From Candidatus Woesearchaeota archaeon (GTDB taxonomy: Archaea > Nanobdellota > Nanobdellia > Pacearchaeales > GW2011-AR1): DNA of 10,394 nt. The DNA is taken from the NCBI GenBank assembly GCA_964594495.1, contig CAZQLX010000015.1, positions 9,451 to 19,844 on the forward strand, read 5' to 3'. The position numbers and the translations under genes are program-made. Below are positions 121 to 10,394 of this stretch, in pieces (the first letter of the stretch is position 1; every line of letters begins with the position of its first letter). A model generated the notes under the pieces. The model saw only the letters and a program-made list of their open reading frames with translations. It ran no database searches and was not told the origin of the DNA.

Positions 121-825
121 ATGGAATACTATTCTTATAGAAGAAAAGCAAATAGAGACTTTGTATTGATAATTAAAAACTTATCGATGGTGAGTTGGTT
201 GATAATAATCAGCGTTGTTATTTCTGTAGTTGGATTTATTTCTTGGGCTTTAGCTCCGGGAAGTATTATTTATTTTGCTTTAAAGCCTGCCAATATTTTA
301 AGTGGAGAGGCGATATGGACTTTAATTGTTCATATGTTTGCTCATGGAAATTTAATTCATTTGTTGATTAACATGTTTGTTCTGTTTTCTTTAGGAAAGT
401 TATCTGAAAAAATAATTGGGAGAAAAAGATTTTTGTGGTTTTACTTAGCTGCGGGAGTGTTTGCAGGGATTTTATCAGTTTTACTCGCAGGTTATTTTGG
501 TTATGGTGGGGGGGCAAAGATCTTTGGAACACCTGATACATACATGGTTGGAGCTTCAGGAGCAATTTTTGGAATAGCAGGATTATTTGTGATGCTTCTC
601 CCTAAAATTAGATTTGGAATTATATTTATTCCATTCTTTTCATTGCCTGCTTATGTTATGGTTCCTTTAGTTCTTATCTTAACATGGGCAGCAACTCTTG
701 CTGCGGGGTTGCCTATAGGCAACGTAGCACACCTTGGAGGGTTTTTAGCAGGACTTGGGTATGGGTATTACTTAAGAGTAAGATATAGAAAAAAAGTAAT
801 AATGTTACAAAGAATGTTCAGATGA
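121..825 (+). CDS. Rhomboid-family intramembrane serine protease
   Basis: 234 aa and polytopic. It has the HxxxxHxxxN motif (HGNLIHLLIN), the catalytic GxSG (GASG, Ser146 at nt 556-558) and the catalytic His in AHLGGFLAGL (His204 at nt 730-732). GAGG lies at 113-116, 4 nt upstream of the ATG. The arrangement matches the rhomboid family (PF01694). Confidence 0.9.
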   Translation: MEYYSYRRKANRDFVLIIKNLSMVSWLIIISVVISVVGFISWALAPGSIIYFALKPANILSGEAIWTLIVHMFAHGNLIHLLINMFVLFSLGKLSEKIIGRKRFLWFYLAAGVFAGILSVLLAGYFGYGGGAKIFGTPDTYMVGASGAIFGIAGLFVMLLPKIRFGIIFIPFFSLPAYVMVPLVLILTWAATLAAGLPIGNVAHLGGFLAGLGYGYYLRVRYRKKVIMLQRMFR

Positions 826-4532: not shown

Positions 4533-5126
4533 ATGGAAAATTTGGTAGATGCGATCGATGATGGTAAAATTATACGGGTTAGAGAAGAATATGCGAGAAG
4601 AGAAGGACTTTTCATTCTTAGAAAAGTAGAGGAAATGAAGGAAGAAAAATTAAGTAGAAAAGGAAAAATTGAAGAGGAGAGATTAGGATTTGACGAGCTA
4701 AGAAGACCCTTGAATTTACGAAAGAGTCAAGTTATATCTGAGTTGAAAGATAATTTTCAGTGGGAAATTTTAAGCGCAAGAAAGAAGAAGGGATTAAACA
4801 GGAAACAAGTTGCAAATGCTATTGGGATGACGGAAAATGATGTTAAGCTCATTGAAAATGGACTTTTACCTAAGGAAGATTTTGTTTTAGTAAATAAAAT
4901 TCAAGATTTTTATAAGATAAATTTAAGAAAAGATGGAAAAGATTTTAGTGGTTGGGCAAGATACAAAGTTGATTTGAGTAAAGGTATTTTTGGATCTGAA
5001 AAGAAAGAAGAGGTAAAAATGGAGAGAAAAATGGGGATGGGCATAAATAATGATGATGTTGGGGTGGAAAAAGATAGTGTTGATGAGTTAGAGCTTCCTG
5101 ATATAGAATTAGAGGATGAAAATTAA
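4533..5126 (+). CDS. XRE/MBF1-type helix-turn-helix protein with an acidic C-terminal tail
   Basis: 197 aa. The HTH lies at about aa 77-130 (nt ~4761-4922): LSARKKKGLNRKQVANAIGMTENDVKLIENGLLPKEDFVLVNKIQDFYKINL. This follows the MBF1/HTH_3 pattern (PF01381). There is no Cys, so no zinc ribbon. The C-terminus is DSVDELELPDIELEDEN. AGGAG at 4523-4527 lies 5 nt before the ATG. Confidence 0.7.
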   Translation: MENLVDAIDDGKIIRVREEYARREGLFILRKVEEMKEEKLSRKGKIEEERLGFDELRRPLNLRKSQVISELKDNFQWEILSARKKKGLNRKQVANAIGMTENDVKLIENGLLPKEDFVLVNKIQDFYKINLRKDGKDFSGWARYKVDLSKGIFGSEKKEEVKMERKMGMGINNDDVGVEKDSVDELELPDIELEDEN

Positions 5127-5200
5127 GAGTTTTAGCACAGCAAAAGGGTTTATAACAAGATTTAGAAAATCATTGACAAAGTTGGGATTTCTCGCAAGCT

Positions 5201-5216
5201 CGAAAGCTTTATAAAT
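5201..5216 (+). promoter_or_regulatory. Putative BRE + TATA box of rpoL
   Basis: CGAAAG (purine-rich and BRE-like) is followed by CTTTATAAAT. The first T of TTTATAAAT (5208) lies 29 nt upstream of ATG 5237, which implies a leaderless transcript. Confidence 0.55.
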
Positions 5217-5236
5217 TAACTTTTTGAGAGATAGAT

Positions 5237-5494
5237 ATGAATGTTGAAGTTGTAACGGCTGAAAAGAATGATTTGGAAGTTAAACTTGATAATCTTACAG
5301 TTGCTGAGATACTGAGAGTTTACTTAAATGAAGGCGGAGTGGAATTCGCTGCTTGGAGAAGGGAACATCCATTTAAGCCTTTGACTTTGAAAGTAAAAAC
5401 ATCTGGAGAGACGGCAAAAAAGGCGGTGAGTGATGCTGTAAGTGCAATAAAGAAAGATTTGGATAAGTTGAATTCTGTTGTTAAGAAGAAATAG
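5237..5494 (+). CDS. rpoL: DNA-directed RNA polymerase subunit L (Rpo11 / RpoL)
   Basis: 85 aa. LEVKLDNLTVAEILRVYLNEGGVEFAAWRREHPF...LKVKT matches the conserved core of archaeal subunit L / eukaryotic Rpb11 (FAaY..xHPl). The size is typical. It has its own BRE/TATA at 5201-5216. Confidence 0.85.
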   Translation: MNVEVVTAEKNDLEVKLDNLTVAEILRVYLNEGGVEFAAWRREHPFKPLTLKVKTSGETAKKAVSDAVSAIKKDLDKLNSVVKKK

Positions 5495-5495
5495 A

Positions 5496-5506
5496 TTTAA
5501 TAATAA
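5496..5506 (+). promoter_or_regulatory. Putative TATA box of the glycosylase-like gene
   Basis: TTTAATAATAA starts 2 nt after the rpoL stop and 29 nt upstream of ATG 5525. Confidence 0.35.
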
Positions 5507-5524
5507 GTTTCTATATTTTGTTTG

Positions 5525-6286
5525 ATGAATAGTTTATTGATTTCAAAGTGTAAATTGTTGCTTGATGCCTATAAGACAGGTAAATTAGGTCAAACAAAAA
5601 TGCCTGAAGATGCAAATCCTGGATTTTCTGATAAAGATATCGAGGTGAGACTTGCTTATTTTAGTTTGCCAATGGCTCTTAATTATCAAAGAGATAGCTA
5701 TAGGCTTTGGGAAGCTGCTTTGAAGACGTATAATGATGCTGAGACAAGAGAAGTCTTTGATGTTTCTAAAGTTATTTTATTAAGCGAGGATAAACTGAGG
5801 GGGTTTCTTACAAAATATAAATTAGCTTTACAACCCAATAAGCAAACAAACACTTGGAAAATAATTGCAAAAACAGTTTATGAGAATTTTGGAACTTTTT
5901 CTGAGCTAATAAAGCAATCAGATAATGATTATTTAAAATTAAAAGATAATATTCAAAATAAACTTAAGAAAGGATTTCCATATCTTTCTGGACCGAAGAT
6001 ATTTAATTACTGGTCTTTTATAATAAGTACATATGGGAATGTTAAGTTAAAAAATGCTGATTTAATAGAAATTGCTCCCGATACCCACATTATACAGTGC
6101 TCGGTTATATTGGGTTTGATATCTAAAGAAGATGCGGAGATACTTACTAAAGACAAGATATCGGAGAGATGGCGAAACGTGCTACATAATTCTGGGATAA
6201 ATCCTATTGATATGCATCCACCTTTATGGTTCTGGAGTAGAAATGGATTTATTTACCAACTTCCCGAGTTACTTGAGGATAGCTAG
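5525..6286 (+). CDS. Divergent HhH-GPD-superfamily DNA glycosylase-like protein without an Fe-S cluster
   Basis: 253 aa counted from ATG 5525; the track starts at TTG 5522. FPYLSGPKIFNYWSFII (G-P-K at nt 5990-5998) followed by IEIAPDTHIIQCSVILGLI (Asp at 6080-6082) parallels the hairpin LPGVGxKTA ... VDTHIxRV block of EndoIII-type enzymes (PF00730). There is no C-terminal Cys cluster. The assignment rests on motifs only. Confidence 0.5.
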   Translation: MNSLLISKCKLLLDAYKTGKLGQTKMPEDANPGFSDKDIEVRLAYFSLPMALNYQRDSYRLWEAALKTYNDAETREVFDVSKVILLSEDKLRGFLTKYKLALQPNKQTNTWKIIAKTVYENFGTFSELIKQSDNDYLKLKDNIQNKLKKGFPYLSGPKIFNYWSFIISTYGNVKLKNADLIEIAPDTHIIQCSVILGLISKEDAEILTKDKISERWRNVLHNSGINPIDMHPPLWFWSRNGFIYQLPELLEDS

Positions 6287-7270: not shown

Positions 7271-7708
7271 ATGAAAATCGGAAAAATAGTTCGTAGAATT
7301 CTGATAACAACTCAGTTTTTAGCTGTAGGTTATTTGGGATCGGCTTTATTAATAAGTCATCTAGCTGAGCGGCATTCTCCACAAATTACTAGTCAGCAAC
7401 AATTAGAGGAGGTTTTAGAAGTTGAGAGAAAAATTATGAATTTTCCAACAAATTTAGTAATAAAAGGCACGTTAAATCATGATGAAATGAGATCCCATGC
7501 TAAAAGAGTAGAGCAGGACTTTTATGAGTTTACATTAGGGGAAAAATATCATCCAACTATCTCCACATTACAACATGAATTATATCATATCAAAGATGGG
7601 CATTTAGAAAGTAAACCTAAAAATAAAATTCTTGCAGGTTTAAAGTATTTACTTTGGTTTGAGCCAAAGGCTATTTTTTATCAATTTAAAAGATCTAGAG
7701 AAAGGTGA
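7271..7708 (+). CDS. Small HExxH (zincin-like) putative metallopeptidase with an N-terminal hydrophobic anchor
   Basis: 145 aa. It has an N-terminal hydrophobic segment (ILITTQFLAVGYLGSALLISHL). HELYH lies at nt 7574-7588, with a third His 5 residues later (HELYHIKDGH, His111 at 7601-7603). It sits 24 nt after radB, with GAGG at 7263-7266 and no TATA box, so it is probably co-transcribed with radB. Confidence 0.6.
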   Translation: MKIGKIVRRILITTQFLAVGYLGSALLISHLAERHSPQITSQQQLEEVLEVERKIMNFPTNLVIKGTLNHDEMRSHAKRVEQDFYEFTLGEKYHPTISTLQHELYHIKDGHLESKPKNKILAGLKYLLWFEPKAIFYQFKRSRER

Positions 7709-7768: not shown

Positions 7769-8476
7769 ATGGCTGGTAAAAAAGAGAGCGGAAAAGGGAA
7801 GGAAAGGAGTGAAACAGGAATACCTGGATTCGATAAACTTTGCGAGGGAGGGTTCTATGCTAATAGTATCAATTTAGTTATTGGATCGGCGGGAAGCGGA
7901 AAAACGACTTTTGGATTACAATACTTATATCATGGAGCAACAAAAGCTGGCGAAAATGGATTATATATTAGTTTTGAGCCAGAAACTAAAGAATTATTTG
8001 TTGCCGGAAAAAAGCAAGGAATGGACTTTGAGGAGTTAGATAAGAAGGGAAGTGTGAAAATTGTAAAGTTAAATAATACAAGTTCTATTGCCGCGGTTGA
8101 GAAGCAAGTTAAAGATTTAATTAAAAAGTATAATGCTAAGAGAGTTTGTTTTGATCCATTAAATGTTTTTGCTTTGGATTTACCTGCTGGAAAGAATCCA
8201 AGAAAACAAATATATGATTTAACGAATGCTTTGAAATCACTTGGCGTTACAGTTGTTTTAGTTGCTGAGGCGAATGAAGAAACAGTAGGAGTACAGAATT
8301 TGCCTGAGGAAGTTGTTTTCGCCAAATTCTTTGCTGATAGCGTTACAGAAATTTATGCTTCTGGGCTTGGTGGAGCTGGAGATAGATCGATAAGAATTGC
8401 TAAAATGAGAATGACGAATAATGTTAGAGGACCGCAAAGTATGGAAATTACTGATAAGGGTATAAGAATTCTTTAG
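7769..8476 (+). CDS. Single-domain KaiC-like RecA-superfamily ATPase (COG0467-type)
   Basis: 235 aa. GIPGFDKLCEGGFYANSINLVIGSAGSGKTTFGLQYLYHG (Walker A at nt 7883-7906) followed by GLYISFEPE matches the KaiC-domain N-terminal signature GIxGLDxxLxGGxxxGxxxLxxGxxGxGKT...vS.EE (PF06745). Walker B-like RVCFDPL is present, as is a C-terminal IRIAKMRMTNN...MEITDKGIRI. It has its own TATA at 7736-7745. Confidence 0.85.
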   Translation: MAGKKESGKGKERSETGIPGFDKLCEGGFYANSINLVIGSAGSGKTTFGLQYLYHGATKAGENGLYISFEPETKELFVAGKKQGMDFEELDKKGSVKIVKLNNTSSIAAVEKQVKDLIKKYNAKRVCFDPLNVFALDLPAGKNPRKQIYDLTNALKSLGVTVVLVAEANEETVGVQNLPEEVVFAKFFADSVTEIYASGLGGAGDRSIRIAKMRMTNNVRGPQSMEITDKGIRIL

Positions 8477-8818
8477 TTAGAAAATTTTCAGCTTTTTTAG
8501 AATATTATTAACTTCTAATTCTGTGGAATCTAGATTGATTCCCATATACCCCTTTGATATTCTCATATTTAATTCCGATTTTACACGATTTATTATTTTG
8601 TCACGAATATAATTTAGATCAACATCGGGAAGAGGAGTGTTAATAGGATTTATCTTTTCTCTGTAGGAAATTGCAATATTTAGACTGTTTGCTGATTCTT
8701 TTTCATATCTGGACGTTAACTCTGGATTGTTTGTTGATTTTTCTAAGATGGTATGAATTATAGCATTCGAGAGATTTCCAATTAACAAATCAATTATCTT
8801 ATTTCTGTTTTGAACCAT
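8477..8818 (-). CDS. Hypothetical 113-aa protein (composition suggests mostly helical), translationally coupled to the upstream nucleotidyltransferase
   Basis: The ATG at 8816-8818 lies 20 nt inside the 3' end of the 267-aa ORF (overlap ATGGTTCAAAACAGAAATAA). It is the only long ORF filling the 8477-8798 interval, and the stop-rich AT-rich background makes a chance 113-codon ORF unlikely. I recognise no motif, and there is no Rx4-6H. Confidence 0.55.
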   Translation of the reverse strand: MVQNRNKIIDLLIGNLSNAIIHTILEKSTNNPELTSRYEKESANSLNIAISYREKINPINTPLPDVDLNYIRDKIINRVKSELNMRISKGYMGINLDSTELEVNNILKKLKIF

Positions 8819-9602
8819 TTTTTATTAAAGAAAATATAGCCTCTTGAGTTTTTTTATATGCTTTTTTATAGATATCGATAAAATCTTTTTTGTTTAGCAT
8901 ATTGTTTTTTAACTGCTCGATATCTTGTAAATTGAATATCTTAATTATTTCAGTATCAGTTACAGAGGGAGTTAACTTTTTATTTTCTATGAAAAGTTTT
9001 ATACTTATTAAGTTTCTAGTTAAATAGTATTTTTGCTCGCCATCTAAGATATCAAAGTTTTCTATTAATGGTTTGCTTTTTAGTAGGTGTAAATCTAAGA
9101 CTTTATAATCGAACTTCCTTTTGATATTGTAGATAATTCTATGTGAAGAGACACAACAAGACAACATTAAATTGTATAATGGATCTGTTTCTAGACCTCT
9201 TTTTAAAGATTCATTATCAATTATTATAATATGGGGTAGTATGCCTGTTAGTGATTGAATTTTGTCTTTAAGTTCTCGCTCATTTACTTTATTTTCTTTT
9301 ACTATTATGATATCTATATCATTGAATTTAAAGCCCTCATTAAGGAAGGAGCCTGTAATGATGATATTTTGATATTCTTTTATTAAACTGTCAACAGTAT
9401 TAAATATTTTCTGTATTATATTTAGCTTTATTGGAGCAATTTCTTTAATTCCGTAAAAGTAAGGCTTTTGAGTGGTAGTTATGTGGTTTTTAGATAACGG
9501 GGAGATGACTACATAACTTCCTGTTTCTAAGCCTGATCTTTTCTTGGGCACGTATATTTGGTCCATAAGACTGCCCTTGCTTATTTTTGCTATGATCTCC
9601 AT
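8799..9602 (-). CDS. Pol-beta-superfamily nucleotidyltransferase with an N-terminal beta-rich extension and a helical C-terminal domain
   Basis: 267 aa. The minimal-NTase signature is present: ITG84-S85-FLNEGFKFN-D95-I-D97-IIIV (nt 9312-9353), with a later acidic residue in HIIIIDNE. This matches the G[SG]-x9-13-DxD pattern of PF01909. The N-terminal ~75 aa (IAKISKGSLMDQIYVPKKRSGLETGSYVVISP) loosely resembles SpoVT/AbrB-type hairpins; this is low confidence. The C-terminal ~110 aa look helical. Confidence 0.75.
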   Translation of the reverse strand: MEIIAKISKGSLMDQIYVPKKRSGLETGSYVVISPLSKNHITTTQKPYFYGIKEIAPIKLNIIQKIFNTVDSLIKEYQNIIITGSFLNEGFKFNDIDIIIVKENKVNERELKDKIQSLTGILPHIIIIDNESLKRGLETDPLYNLMLSCCVSSHRIIYNIKRKFDYKVLDLHLLKSKPLIENFDILDGEQKYYLTRNLISIKLFIENKKLTPSVTDTEIIKIFNLQDIEQLKNNMLNKKDFIDIYKKAYKKTQEAIFSLIKNGSKQK

Positions 9603-9622
9603 ATTACGTAATATTACGTAAT
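9603..9622 (-). promoter_or_regulatory. Two tandem copies of the 10-bp palindrome ATTACGTAAT, forming a perfect 20-bp palindrome; putative operator
   Basis: ATTACGTAAT occurs at 9603-9612 and again at 9613-9622. Viewed as a direct repeat, it is ATATTACGTA x2.2 across 9601-9622. It sits exactly between the TATA box (9625-9632) and the start codon (9600-9602). By eye, the motif does not recur anywhere else in the window. Confidence 0.6.
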
Positions 9623-9624
9623 TG

Positions 9625-9632
9625 TATATAAA
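9625..9632 (-). promoter_or_regulatory. Putative TATA box of the nucleotidyltransferase gene
   Basis: The minus strand reads TTTATATA, with its first T (9632) 30 nt upstream of the ATG (9602). It lies inside the 39-nt spacer after the TrmB-like gene. Confidence 0.55.
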
Positions 9633-9641
9633 TGTTTTGCT

Positions 9642-10394
9642 TTAAGGTTTGGCGATTTTCCAGAGAACATTGAAGTAGGATTTAAGGCTGTCAACGGCTT
9701 CTTGACTTTCTAGCATTACTCCGACAGGTTCTTCTGTCATGAAAAAGAAGAAAACTTTCTTCTTATAGAATAAAATCATCATTTTATTAATAAAATATTG
9801 GGGAAGAAAACGAATGCTTGAACAGATTTTTGTTGTCGGTACTAATTCTATTTTTGCTTCGTAATTTACGAGCATATTAACTTTAATTCTCTTTTTTGCT
9901 CTGTCTTTGTGATAATTATAGAAAAAGTCCATTACTTCTGGATGGTATTTTGTATAGTAAGCACCAATAACATAGTATTCCTCTCCTGCTTTTAACTCTT
10001 CTATAACATTTCTATATATGTTAAAAATTGCTTTAAATCCTTCGAATAAAGTAGCTCTTGTTTTACTTTTTGATTTTTTTCTTTCTACTTCGAGAGTTGG
10101 AATAAGATGTTTAACTTGTTCTATTTTATTATCTAATTCTACTTGTTTTTTTTTCATATAATCCAGGATTGTTTTGGGAGGCATTGCTTGAAAATATTTT
10201 ATTTTACCTTTGATAATATGACCAGCAAGTCCCTTGTTCATTAATTTATCAAGAACTTTGTATACTTTAGAGGATGAAATATTGGCTTCTTTAGCTAATT
10301 GTCCTGTTTTTGTTTCTCCTAATCTTATTAAAGTTAGATATACTTTAGTCTCTCCTTCTGTAAGACCGATATCTTTGAGTAATTTTATATCCAT
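9642..10394 (-). CDS. TrmB-family transcriptional regulator (winged HTH plus TrmB-type C-terminal domain)
   Basis: 250 aa. The ATG falls exactly at the window edge (10392-10394). The N-terminus LLKDIGLTEGETKVYLTLIRLGETKTGQLAKEANISSSKVYKVLDKLMNKGL is the canonical TrmB wHTH (PF01978). The length and C-terminal half fit full-length TrmB-like proteins. An upstream extension beyond the window cannot be excluded. Confidence 0.85.
   Translation of the reverse strand: MDIKLLKDIGLTEGETKVYLTLIRLGETKTGQLAKEANISSSKVYKVLDKLMNKGLAGHIIKGKIKYFQAMPPKTILDYMKKKQVELDNKIEQVKHLIPTLEVERKKSKSKTRATLFEGFKAIFNIYRNVIEELKAGEEYYVIGAYYTKYHPEVMDFFYNYHKDRAKKRIKVNMLVNYEAKIELVPTTKICSSIRFLPQYFINKMMILFYKKKVFFFFMTEEPVGVMLESQEAVDSLKSYFNVLWKIAKP

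Follow-up and report, generated by a model that had tools for sequence, protein, structure and literature searches.

Typical toxin-antitoxin (TA) modules are patchy, multi-copy and mobile in their distribution, and in those of the HepT-MntA kind (type VII) the nucleotidyltransferase (NTase) gene comes first and overlaps a second gene, which encodes a small helical partner. The type VII NTase (poly)AMPylates its partner on a tyrosine and so renders it non-toxic. The Shewanella pair SO_3165/3166 (PDB 7aer, 7bxo, 6m6w) shares with the locus described here a GS...DxD NTase encoded first, the gene overlap, a small, all-helical partner (~110-130 aa) and an operon that is probably autoregulated. In HI0073/HI0074 (PDB 1no5), as here, a small NTase is accompanied by a separate four-helix-bundle protein. 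The ANT-type enzymes AAD(9) (6xz0), AadA (6fzb/5g4a) and LinB (3jyy) are chains of ~250-265 aa in which a helical domain comes after the NTase domain. Hailong HalB (PDB 9dbh/9dbj) is a similar two-domain NTase; one of its own tyrosines serves as the primer for oligo-dA synthesis, and it exerts negative control over the partner with which it shares a two-gene operon (PMC13434031).

Among the DPANN archaea, Makarova, Wolf & Koonin (2019; PMC6393860) placed cls.004259 (representative NEQ050), an 'MNT fused to HEPN', among four top-priority 'dark matter' families. It is described there as DPANN-specific, in a housekeeping context, present in 36 of 67 DPANN genomes and 'most probably a toxin-antitoxin module', unusually conserved. 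Table 1 of the same paper separately gives cls.004340 (NEQ484), an 'alpha helical protein, house-keeping context'. An enrichment of AbiE in DPANN genomes has also been reported (PMC12988326). Here we compare these systems with a locus from a Woesearchaeota genome and its relatives in other DPANN archaea.

Results

An NTase gene overlaps a small partner gene

The window, i.e. the whole 10,394-nt stretch that was analysed, contains long minus-strand open reading frames of 250, 267 and 113 aa only (Table 1). All long frames between positions 121 and 8476 lie on the plus strand, and a KaiC-like plus-strand gene ending at 8476 abuts the stop of the 113-aa gene at 8477. The ORF positions therefore agree with an earlier note on this DNA, which had described three co-oriented genes as the window's only minus-strand block.

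Table 1 Coordinates of the features of the NTase-partner locus in the window.
Feature	Position (nt)	Strand	Basis and remarks
TrmB-like gene, 250 aa	9642-10394	-	ORF list; wHTH at residues 6-74; judged to lie outside the unit
Promoter: BRE-like purine-rich stretch AAAGCAAAACA and TATA box	9625-9643	-	sequence
BRE-like stretch AAAGCAAAACA	9633-9643	-	sequence
TATA box TTTATATA	9625-9632	-	begins 30 nt ahead of the NTase start codon
Operator: palindrome ATTACGTAAT, two direct copies	9613-9622, 9603-9612	-	core TACGTA, 10-bp period
NTase ATG	9600-9602	-	sequence
NTase gene, 267 aa	8799-9602	-	ORF list
N-terminal domain, residues 1-55	9438-9602	-	beta-rich; alignments and AlphaFold model
Pol-beta/minimal-NTase core, residues 56-139	9186-9437	-	motif, fold
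Helical C-terminal domain, residues 140-267 and stop	8799-9185	-	ANT/KNTase-like, all-helical
NTase/partner gene overlap	8799-8818	-	20 nt; partner gene in the +1 frame
Partner gene, 113 aa	8477-8818	-	ORF list

The coordinates also confirm the 20-nt overlap noted earlier: the NTase tail (..NGSKQK and stop) is written over the partner start MVQNRNK. We surveyed 84 DPANN loci and found a partner homologue directly downstream of the NTase gene in 77 of them, which bears out the expectation that the 113-aa frame is a real gene, has homologues and is conserved beside the NTase. The overlapping pair is present even in a relative at 44% identity. Where both gene ends could be placed (54 loci), the relative frame is constant throughout and the overlap measures 11, 14, 20 or 29 nt in 52 loci; from this single register of 11-29 nt we infer translational coupling, as the overlap in the window itself indicates. 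Two proteins, P0191 and P0113, are in-frame NTase-partner fusions. An intact partner gene is missing from L035, L081 and L040, and the gene is frameshifted in L078 and L084, which points either to lineages that can do without the partner or to faulty assemblies.

The NTase carries two additional domains

The 267-aa protein was predicted to be a Pol-beta/minimal NTase (MNT)-type enzyme with extra domains, and both motif and fold support this. The motif ITGSFLNEGFKFNDIDIIIV (G84-S85-x9-D95-I96-D97, nt 9312-9353) is the predicted GS-x9-DID signature and conforms to the hG[GS]-x9-13-Dh[DE]h motif of the Pol-beta/minimal NTase superfamily (PF01909 clan). Since G84, S85, D95 and D97 are invariant in the alignment of 50 homologues, it is no chance match. 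Profile matches are weak: PF01909 gives an E-value of 0.009 and 16.8 bits, under the gathering cut-off of 21, and the 50 homologues include 24 weak matches to PF01909 and 25 to PF22014. The AlphaFold model (overall pLDDT 84.6) nevertheless has an NTase fold, for which Foldseek returns AAD(9), HalB, AadA, MntA (chains 7aer, 7bxo and 6m6w) and HI0073 at probabilities of 0.97-1.0. Near-invariant H124 (98%) is on strand 124-128, the next after the motif strands, and appears to stand where the third catalytic carboxylate is usually expected; D129 is variable, and D140 is invariant but lies past the next helix. This placement of H124 suggests that the chemistry may differ from that of MntA.

As anticipated from the letters, the domain sizes in the AlphaFold model show a beta-rich N-terminal and a helical C-terminal addition to the MNT core. 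They make the protein about twice the size of MntA, and, unlike HI0073, it already contains a fused helical domain. The C-terminal domain, with helices spanning 130-263 at pLDDT >90, has invariant D140, R155, D170, K191 and N197, R196 at 94%, and a 'TRN' motif. The best full-length fold matches are AAD(9), AadA and LinB, aligned by Foldseek over 256-272 columns at TM-scores of ~0.4 and 9-12% identity; ANT-type and kanamycin NTase-like enzymes, in contrast, have no N-terminal beta domain, partner gene or such operator, and beyond this likeness in fold to ANT enzymes we found no evidence for an antibiotic substrate.

The NTase is probably a member of cls.004259, to which it was matched by description, and the earlier suggestion of an undescribed variant is to that extent not supported. 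Both are DPANN-restricted, join an MNT and a helical domain in one polypeptide and occur in a housekeeping context. The helical domain of cls.004259 was assigned to HEPN by HHpred (PMC6393860), whereas our C-terminal domain has no Pfam HEPN match and no conserved Rx4-6H, gives 0.3% probability in hhalign against a bona fide HEPN protein, and thus shows no HEPN ancestry by HMMER or hhalign. The overlapping partner, the N-terminal domain and the conserved operator are not mentioned in those parts of PMC6393860 that give the account of cls.004259.

The N-terminal domain is invariant at S8, G10, M13-D14-Q15, Y17, R22, G28 and Y50 among the aligned homologues and is modelled at a pLDDT of ~60 as three short strands and one short helix. 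The earlier note had labelled it AbrB/SpoVT-like by eye. No Pfam family matched it; PF04014, at E-values up to 10, matched 0 of 26 N-terminal segments, and no AbrB or MazE structure was matched. A profile search against the PDB returned weak matches only, namely eS1 (E 0.007) and designed double-psi barrels (E 0.09-0.2). By eye, the pattern K-I-S-K-G-x-x-x-D-Q-V-Y-I-P-K-x-R-x-G-x-x-x-G-x-Y-V resembles cradle-loop barrels, in a region where the model is of low confidence.

The partner is a four-helix bundle without HEPN features

The 113-aa partner has 60 homologues at ~55% identity, and an exhaustive search gathered 161 representative clusters. It is modelled with high confidence (pLDDT 90.2) as a four-helix bundle (helices 2-28, 32-56, 65-88 and 96-109), and its invariant residues are N4, R5, N15, N18, H22, Y38, E41, S45, Y52, R53, P58, R86, G90 and Y91. 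Three of these (Y38, Y52 and Y91) are tyrosines.

The earlier note had read the partner as lacking the HEPN Rx4-6H motif, and this motif was indeed found in 0 of 43 partner sequences. No Pfam family matched, PF05168, PF01934 and PF08780 included; Foldseek against the PDB and viral structures gave nothing significant (the best match, at E 0.25, being a generic Dps/ferritin-type bundle) and no HEPN among its top matches; and hhalign against a DPANN HEPN protein gave 0.1% probability. The partner is therefore no recognisable HEPN protein, and it differs in this from those of HepT-MntA and from HI0074-type partners, which belong to HEPN/NTase-substrate-binding families. Searches with HMMER, Pfam and Foldseek turned up no relatives beyond its own homologues, and the partner resembles no known toxin family. 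The partner might correspond to cls.004340 (PMC6393860, Table 1).

The two proteins could instead make and sense a signal, the NTase (HalB/CD-NTase-like) constitutively synthesising an oligonucleotide, possibly primed on a protein tyrosine, which the four-helix partner would bind as sensor or guard. HalB ranks second among the fold matches (9dbj_B, E 6.7e-4), it uses its own tyrosine as primer and restrains its partner (PMC13434031), several tyrosines are invariant in both of our proteins, and the invariant polar residues of the partner appear to sit on one face each of helices 1 and 2, as for a ligand pocket. However, HalB is matched at a TM-score of no more than 0.32-0.39, the partner, a small soluble bundle, is neither a membrane channel nor another recognisable effector, and the pair lies outside defence islands, is absent from mobile elements and gives no PADLOC matches, which makes this reading very improbable. 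The Hailong system itself is rejected: HalA is a transmembrane channel of a mobile bacterial anti-phage defence, whereas the 113-aa soluble four-helix bundle belongs to a vertically inherited archaeal operon without PADLOC matches.

A near-invariant tandem operator fills the promoter

The presence of a palindromic operator upstream of the NTase, as proposed before, is borne out by two copies of ATTACGTAAT, an element common to the loci. In the window they occupy the whole gap between the TATA box TTTATATA and the NTase start codon. Across the DPANN loci, the order is a TATA box, ~4 nt, and a tandem TTACGTAA of 10-bp period, usually abutting the ATG, with an AAAG-N-TTTAWATA block at fixed distance. 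TACGTA-N4-TACGTA occurs in 76 of the 84 loci with at most one mismatch per hexamer (exactly in 57), and the other eight retain one perfect TACGTA copy. In 53 loci, 4 nt separate the end of the TATA-like box from the first repeat, and in 70 of the 84 the ATG follows the second hexamer by 2-3 nt. Core positions of the operator are 100% conserved, compared with 37-50% at the least conserved (wobble-like) coding positions downstream. The promoter-operator is better conserved than the proteins (~50% identity). In 569 kb of flanking DNA the tandem operator was matched elsewhere once, also at an NTase start (L049); it is specific to the NTase-partner operon within the DPANN flanks examined.

TATA-like boxes also precede four further genes in the window, where they begin 26-33 nt ahead of the start codon, and the geometry of the NTase promoter agrees with that of these genes. 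A TATA box 30 nt upstream of the ATG would give a leaderless or near-leaderless mRNA; as judged from sequence, this implies a leaderless-type promoter under operator control. The N-terminal domain of the NTase is a candidate for reading the operator, and since neither this domain nor the partner matches a known DNA-binding family, naming the repressor is guesswork.

The TrmB-like gene is an occasional neighbour

The gene upstream of the NTase is TrmB-like, as had been suggested (PF01978, E 6e-16), but the role then given to its wHTH as the dedicated regulator of the pair is not supported. Among the 84 loci, only the window and L065 have a TrmB-like gene immediately upstream of the NTase; in L017 and L044 a homologue occurs elsewhere within the locus. 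The promoter and operator are present whatever gene is upstream, so the operator is not that of TrmB, and the 39-nt spacer between the TrmB-like and NTase genes of the window already holds the complete NTase promoter. A three-gene cassette of AbiEi/AbiEii-like layout, regulated by the TrmB-like wHTH through the palindromic operator, would account for the co-oriented gene ending 39 nt before the NTase start, for the same arrangement in L065 and for the general resemblance of a wHTH and NTase layout to AbiE. Given that the gene is directly upstream in only two of the 84 loci while the promoter and operator are present in all of them, that the spacer carries the NTase's own full promoter and that the NTase matches no PADLOC AbiE model, we regard such a cassette as extremely improbable. 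AbiE is rejected likewise, its likeness (a wHTH gene beside an NTase gene) being confined to the window and the wHTH gene not being conserved with the NTase. The unit consists of the NTase and partner genes alone.

The pair is widespread in DPANN archaea and probably vertically inherited

The search matched 155 GTDB species genomes, and all of the best 80 listed are of DPANN type. Carriers are Woesearchaeales/Pacearchaeales-type Nanoarchaeota and some Aenigmatarchaeota and Diapherotrites. Among the 80 best genome loci, only one MAG contributes two (H51-bin037_1, with L025 and L052), and the pair is apparently single-copy in nearly all MAGs sampled. Its flanks are housekeeping genes, no neighbour family is shared by more than 6 of 81 loci, and it diverges about as much as the adjacent housekeeping genes LysRS and SRP54. 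Searches of IMG/VR, PLSDB and INPHARED revealed no relatives in viruses, phages or plasmids, and PADLOC gave no matches. A variable-island or defence cassette is therefore not supported. Of the traits of type VII modules, the pair has the upstream, overlapping NTase gene; it has no HEPN RNase partner and, unlike HepT-MntA, it is lineage-wide, near single-copy and in housekeeping context, not patchy, mobile or multi-copy.

A working type VII-like addiction module would nevertheless share much of this operon grammar. The 113-aa protein would then be a toxin of new fold, the NTase an antitoxin that nucleotidylates it and represses its own operon through the N-terminal domain, and addiction, not a host function, would explain why the pair persists in reduced genomes. 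The operon appears autoregulated, with a putative DNA-binding domain in the first gene and a small overlapping second gene; the fold matches include MntA and HI0073; L035 and L081 have lost the second gene but kept the first, an order of loss that a toxin would tolerate; and the probable family is called 'most probably' a TA module in PMC6393860. Against this stand a partner without HEPN motif or fold and unlike any known toxin family, a lineage-wide distribution with one two-locus MAG among the 80 best loci and housekeeping-like divergence, absence from the viral, plasmid and defence libraries, and natural in-frame fusions of the two proteins. We consider an active addiction module unlikely.

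The same context is also compatible with a housekeeping enzyme acting on a non-protein substrate (a small molecule, a lipid or sugar hydroxyl, or an RNA 3' end), with the partner as an accessory, substrate-binding or chaperone subunit and the operator setting dosage. Its best full-length fold matches are small-molecule adenylyltransferases (6xz0, 6fzb and 3jyy), conservation across the lineage is strong, and HI0073/HI0074 was first presented, in its PDB title, as an NTase made of two proteins, one of them a helical subunit that binds the substrate. Yet the similarity to ANT enzymes is low, an operator more conserved than the enzyme's own sequence is rare for a metabolic enzyme, and no linked pathway genes recur nearby. 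This explanation, too, is a doubtful one.

Discussion

At about even chances, we interpret the pair as a self-contained, vertically inherited two-gene operon of DPANN archaea that encodes an autorepressed nucleotidylation module derived from MNT-HEPN. This reading is favoured by the conserved overlapping pair, the fusions P0191 and P0113, the invariant catalytic motif, the near-invariant, fixed-position, operon-specific operator with its promoter geometry, and the lack of a recurrent neighbour that could supply a dedicated regulator. Further points in its favour are the housekeeping context, the LysRS/SRP54-like divergence, the lack of relatives in viruses, phages, plasmids and PADLOC, the NTase-first overlapping order, the fold matches to AAD(9)/AadA, HalB, MntA and HI0073, and the independent account of a DPANN-specific MNT-HEPN fusion in PMC6393860. 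Against it count the absence of matches to DNA-binding families for the N-terminal domain and the partner, the HEPN ancestry of the C-terminal domain that HMMER and hhalign did not reproduce, the histidine H124, and the few genomes without an intact partner gene.

In this operon, the NTase and its partner would be produced in linked amounts and associate in a complex, in which the NTase may nucleotidylate the partner, or itself, on an invariant Tyr or Ser; the partner's RISKGY or YREKINP motifs are examples of possible target sites. Alternatively, the partner may be the regulatory or substrate-binding subunit of the NTase. The complex, bound to the tandem operator, would block recruitment of RNA polymerase and so repress its own promoter, with the DNA contact made most likely by the dimerised N-terminal domain of the NTase. 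Its ancestor would be an MNT-HEPN (type VII) TA-like module from which the HEPN RNase motif disappeared and which was fixed in the lineage as a gene pair.

In DPANN archaea, whose genomes are very small, conserved genes specific to the lineage are few. To what was an 'MNT-HEPN-like hypothetical', our analysis adds a nearly obligate partner with a fold of no known family, which appears translationally coupled, an extra N-terminal domain on the NTase, and a promoter-operator more conserved than the proteins across genomes at ~50% protein identity. The result is a defined three-part system of operator, enzyme and partner that can be reconstituted in vitro.

The pair looks like a TA module turned into a core gene pair. 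If domestication has indeed given it a role in the host, it would illustrate clearly how a selfish element can enter the core gene set, and it could also throw light on the sensing of nucleotide supply by host-dependent archaea. At the speculative end, and quite unlikely in our estimate, the operon could be an essential, DPANN-wide, nucleotide-charged transcription switch, in which the NTase reads the NTP or dNTP supply that these host-dependent archaea cannot make and records it as a covalent nucleotidyl mark on the partner or on its own N-terminal domain; the mark would toggle binding to TTACGTAA, and perhaps to another cellular target. If true, such a switch would be a new regulatory principle, combining a domesticated TA module with a partner fold without relatives.

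A conserved overlapping gene pair

The window is AT-rich (GC 26-36%), and ORF calling places every long ORF between 121 and 8476 on the + strand, with three - strand ORFs at the right end. These three ORFs, the GS-x9-DID signature and the 20-nt overlap described in the earlier note are all present, and their coordinates are collected in the table. The + strand genes encode Rhomboid, SpoIIM-like, ScpB, GT2 glycosyltransferase, RpoL, RadB/Rad51-like and KaiC-like proteins. Three further + strand ORFs that lie amid these housekeeping genes, 4533-5126 (197 aa), 5522-6286 (254 aa) and 7271-7708 (145 aa), have no Pfam family above threshold. The KaiC-like gene (7769-8476, +) meets the small - strand gene stop to stop with zero intergenic bases, and our scan found no terminator-like hairpin at the 8476/8477 junction.

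Features of the minus-strand genes and fold matches of the nucleotidyltransferase (NTase)
Feature	Position	Strand	Remark
TrmB-like protein, 250 aa	9642-10394	-	TrmB wHTH PF01978, E 6e-16
39-nt spacer, 250-aa stop to NTase ATG		-	AGCAAAACA-TTTATATA-CA-ATTACGTAAT-ATTACGTAAT-ATG
NTase, 267 aa	8799-9602	-	
NTase signature	nt 9312-9353	-	ITGSFLNEGFKFNDIDIIIV = G84-S85-x9-D95-I96-D97
NTase 3' end / partner start overlap, 20 nt	8799-8818	-	
Partner ORF, 113 aa	8477-8818	-	conserved gene
NTase N-terminal region	residues 1-55		beta-rich, low-confidence in model
NTase alpha/beta core	residues 79-83, 97-101, 124-128		strands
NTase helical domain	residues 130-263		pLDDT above 90
AAD(9), 6xz0			Foldseek/PDB, E 4e-4, 256 columns
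Hailong HalB, 9dbj			Foldseek/PDB, E 7e-4
AadA, 6fzb and others			Foldseek/PDB, E 6e-3 to 2e-2
MntA chains of HepT-MntA, 7aer, 7bxo, 6m6w			Foldseek/PDB, E 7e-3 to 8e-3
HI0073, 1no5			Foldseek/PDB, E 1e-2
LinB, 3jyy			Foldseek/PDB, E 3e-2

Homologues of the NTase number at least 560 (50-61% identity, ~260-270 aa) in Woesearchaeota, Pacearchaeota, Aenigmarchaeota and Nanoarchaeia assemblies, and none of them carries a precomputed Pfam domain. For the partner, a word-seeded search returned 60 homologues, and an HMMER profile run exhaustively over 1.84 billion representatives gave 161 representative clusters at E ≤ 0.001. The clusters examined are the same family, its fragments or fusions, so HMMER finds no distant partner relatives. 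A genome scan gave matches in 155 GTDB species-representative genomes. The best 80 loci were taken, all of them from DPANN-type MAGs, some with evidently automatic labels such as 'Methanosarcinales'.

HMMs of both families place a partner homologue directly downstream of the NTase in 77 of the 84 surveyed loci, and the small ORF proposed in the earlier note is a real, paired gene. Among the seven partner-less loci, five stop at or just beyond the NTase gene; at locus L035 the partner gene is reduced to 23 codons with a convergent membrane-protein gene abutting, and at L081 there is no trace of it downstream of the NTase. Partner copies are truncated or frameshifted at L040, L078 and L084, and irregular too at L034 and L062.

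Both gene ends could be placed in 54 loci, and in 52 of these the overlap measures 11, 14, 20 or 29 nt; in overlapping loci the small gene is always in the +1 frame relative to the NTase, the same DNA encoding the conserved NTase tail ..NGSKQK and the conserved partner start MVQNRNK. The layout is unchanged in a divergent pair (NTase 44% identity). Since this register is fixed and two in-frame NTase-partner fusion proteins exist, P0191 (366 aa) and P0113 (368 aa), which may be real or assembly artefacts, we considered a programmed +1 frameshift. No slippery or stimulatory signal was found and the small gene starts at a conserved ATG of its own; translational coupling of the two genes is therefore preferred.

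Several single loci deserve mention. The upstream DNA of L035:3012-4700 and L087:670-1776 is near-identical; L087 encodes the fusion P0113, and L035 has lost the small gene. The other fusion, P0191, comes from elsewhere. L025 and L052 come from the same MAG (H51-bin037_1) and hold one NTase-partner pair each, a sign of a rare duplication or of a mixed bin. The 341-aa protein P0297 opens with partner-family residues 34-84 and continues into sequence with a LAGLIDADG-like motif (LAKILGAHVADGN), which may mark an inserted homing endonuclease or a chimera of assembly.

An MNT-type enzyme with a non-HEPN partner

The AlphaFold model of the NTase (mean pLDDT 84.6) combines an intact GS/DxD element with two extra domains. 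Judged from this model and its Foldseek matches, whose TM-scores are modest (about 0.4 at full length), the fold class is clear, two-domain ANT/KNTase-like with an MNT core, and no specific family is assigned. In Pfam, NCBIfam and PADLOC searches of the three proteins the TrmB wHTH (PF01978) alone is significant, the NTase stays sub-threshold and the partner is without matches. The N-terminal domain has no PF04014 (AbrB) match, which leaves the AbrB/SpoVT-like label of the earlier note a tentative one. Sequence and profile queries of the PDB, made for the NTase, its N- and C-domains and the partner, gave nothing significant.

Invariant residues of the NTase alignment are G84, S85, D95, D97, D140, R155, D170, K191 and N197, together with an N-terminal block, M13-D14-Q15...Y17...R22. 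A third catalytic carboxylate is usually expected on the strand after the GS/DxD element; here that strand bears a near-invariant His, H124. With the N-domain profile, the sole matches were those to eS1 (E 0.007) and to designed double-psi barrels (E 0.09-0.2). In the borderline eS1 alignment, NTase residues 1-43 (window 9438-9602) pair with residues 198-238 of a eukaryotic ribosomal protein eS1 (EIVAKCSKVFSMDNVYIRK vs ELIAKISKGSKMDQVYIPK). The C-terminal domain has a conserved TRN and no His at HEPN spacing, and neither HMMER nor hhalign gives it a HEPN match (hhalign 0.3% against the bona fide L081 HEPN protein, a weak single-sequence template).

The partner, a coupled small protein for which our searches found no relatives outside its family, is modelled as a confident four-helix bundle (pLDDT 90.2). 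Its fold has no significant match in PDB or BFVD, where the best are generic Dps/ferritin-type bundles (E ≥ 0.25). It is not recognisable as a HEPN protein: 43 members yield no HEPN, DUF86 or NTase_sub_bind Pfam match, the Rx4-6H motif is absent, in agreement with the earlier note, and hhalign gives 0.1% against the L081 HEPN protein, again with the weakness of a single-sequence template. Descent as a paralogue of the NTase C-domain was likewise rejected (hhalign probability 0.4%). Its invariant residues are N4, R5, N15, N18, H22, Y38, E41, S45, Y52, R53, P58, R86, G90 and Y91. Polar invariant positions fall on single faces of helix 1 (4/11/15/18/22) and helix 2 (38/41/45/49/52) in the model, which suggests a pocket or an interface. 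The proposal of a non-canonical MNT-type pair holds.

A tandem palindrome in the promoter

Essentially every locus carries the same block before the NTase ATG, RAAAG-N-TTTAWATA - about 4 nt - TTACGTAWTWTTACGTAAT - ATG, whose operator, two direct copies of a palindrome, can also be written TTACGTAA-N2-TTACGTAA. The palindromic operator of the earlier note is real: TACGTA-N4-TACGTA with at most one mismatch per hexamer occurs in 76 of the 84 loci, exactly in 57, and the other eight retain one perfect copy. The ATG lies 2-3 nt beyond the second hexamer in 70 loci, and the TATA-like box ends 4 nt ahead of the first in 53. Conservation across the aligned sites is 100% at the TACGTA positions, compared with 37-50% at the least conserved (wobble-like) adjacent coding positions, and the operator is near-invariant although the proteins are only ~50% identical. 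The identical block type precedes the 44%-identity NTase of L085, from a GC-richer genome.

In archaeal promoters the centre of the TATA box lies some 26-27 nt ahead of the start site. The NTase box begins at -30, and those of four other window genes begin 26-33 nt before their start codons. Based on this geometry, the NTase mRNA should be leaderless or nearly so, and the two palindromes would occupy the interval from TATA to start site, where archaeal repressors typically act by keeping RNA polymerase from being recruited. That the palindromes form a hairpin in the RNA was considered and set aside: with the TATA box fixed 4 nt upstream, the repeats come before the transcript start. The Rfam search of the window gave zero matches. 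At L010, L027, L044, L059, L072 and L082 the TATA-plus-operator block does not abut the NTase ATG but stands 10-55 nt upstream, indicating either a short leader or a true start elsewhere.

The tandem motif has one further occurrence in the 569 kb of flanking DNA, likewise at an NTase start (L049). This leaderless-type promoter thus holds an operator that is operon-specific in the DPANN flanks examined, and no neighbour recurs as a regulator; autoregulation by one of the operon's own products is the simplest inference. A 19-nt operator scan of metagenome contigs listed 120 loci, of which 40 are NTase-linked; the others are unrelated organisms or repeats, as a collection of this size would lead one to expect. 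Five metagenome contigs (L103, L090, L143, L151, L170; GC 0.38-0.45) carry four TACGTA hexamers with a 10-bp period (ATTACGTATAAATACGTTACGTAATTTTACGTAAT) next to a divergent gene resembling an archaeal-type ATPase (MENPFEYQRIV...); this element differs from the NTase operator.

Genomic context and inheritance

The earlier note had included the TrmB-like regulator in the cassette. Its gene is co-oriented with the pair in the window, but stands directly upstream of the NTase only there and at L065 among the 84 loci; the neighbourhood survey rules it out as a unit member, and a three-gene TrmB cassette is barely credible. When all flanking ORFs were clustered, every other family turned up in at most 6 of 81 loci, and the commonest were housekeeping genes such as SRP54, LysRS and TFB. 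At L004, HTH_3-type, RpoL and AMMECR1 genes lie a few kb from the NTase pair, and there may be partial synteny with the window around RpoL. At L081:4001-6150, in a Nanoarchaeota MAG, the partner-less NTase adjoins a canonical HEPN gene (5061-5540, -; PF05168, E 3.9e-5) and a wHTH-MNT gene (5524-6150, -; PF01909, E 8.8e-10); their presence in the partner's place could be coincidence or replacement.

PADLOC returned nothing for the NTase or the partner, and the pair has no relatives in IMG/VR (2.9 million viral contigs), PLSDB plasmids or INPHARED phages. These results, with no viral fold match for the partner and no recurrent neighbours, led us to reject a defence or mobile-element reading. A Hailong-like signal-maker, suggested by the HalB fold match, is very improbable.

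Among loci with a shared neighbour, close relatives show LysRS identities of 0.82-0.90 vs 0.85-0.88 for the NTase, and SRP54 0.81 vs 0.80. At deeper divergence NTase identity levels near 0.5, the same range as the SRP54 main cluster (0.55-0.6). Among close relatives NTase identity tracks that of its housekeeping neighbours. This is how a gene inherited vertically and kept by purifying selection behaves, and not a hopping cassette. Co-occurrence and overlap of the two genes, anticipated in the earlier note, are confirmed; a variable-island or defence setting is contradicted by the housekeeping flanks and housekeeping-like divergence. A still-toxic toxin-antitoxin pair with a new toxin fold sits poorly with this context; we regard it as unlikely. 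An enzyme of housekeeping type whose substrate is a small molecule or an RNA, the partner serving as accessory subunit, is improbable to a similar degree.

Discussion

Our preferred reading keeps from the earlier interpretation the non-canonical MNT-type pair, the non-HEPN partner and the operator, and abandons the TrmB role and the variable or defence context. The pair would descend from an MNT-HEPN (type VII TA-like) module, having preserved the layout of that operon (the NTase gene leading, a small helical partner overlapping it, autoregulation), lost the RNase motif and become a fixed gene pair of the lineage. The two proteins would form a complex, in which the NTase may nucleotidylate an invariant Tyr or Ser, either of the partner or of its own chain. 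MntA nucleotidylates HepT. HalB primes synthesis on its own Tyr (PMC13434031). The complex would bind the tandem palindromes, most plausibly with a dimerised N-domain, and so repress its own promoter. Two caveats apply to this mechanism: a few genomes lack an intact partner gene, and the strand on which the third carboxylate is expected bears H124.

Makarova, Wolf and Koonin name four top-priority DPANN-specific dark-matter clusters and take the unusual conservation of cls.004259 (NEQ050, 'MNT fused to HEPN') as a sign of an important role (PMC6393860). By its description this cluster is probably the 267-aa NTase family, and cls.004340 (NEQ484, 'alpha helical protein, house-keeping context') may be the partner. 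Full-text searches and the passages of PMC6393860 that were consulted gave no published account of the partner that overlaps the NTase gene, of the N-domain or of the operator. The enzyme family has thus probably been flagged already, as an uncharacterised one, and the conserved partner and invariant operator provide well-defined parts that are directly testable.
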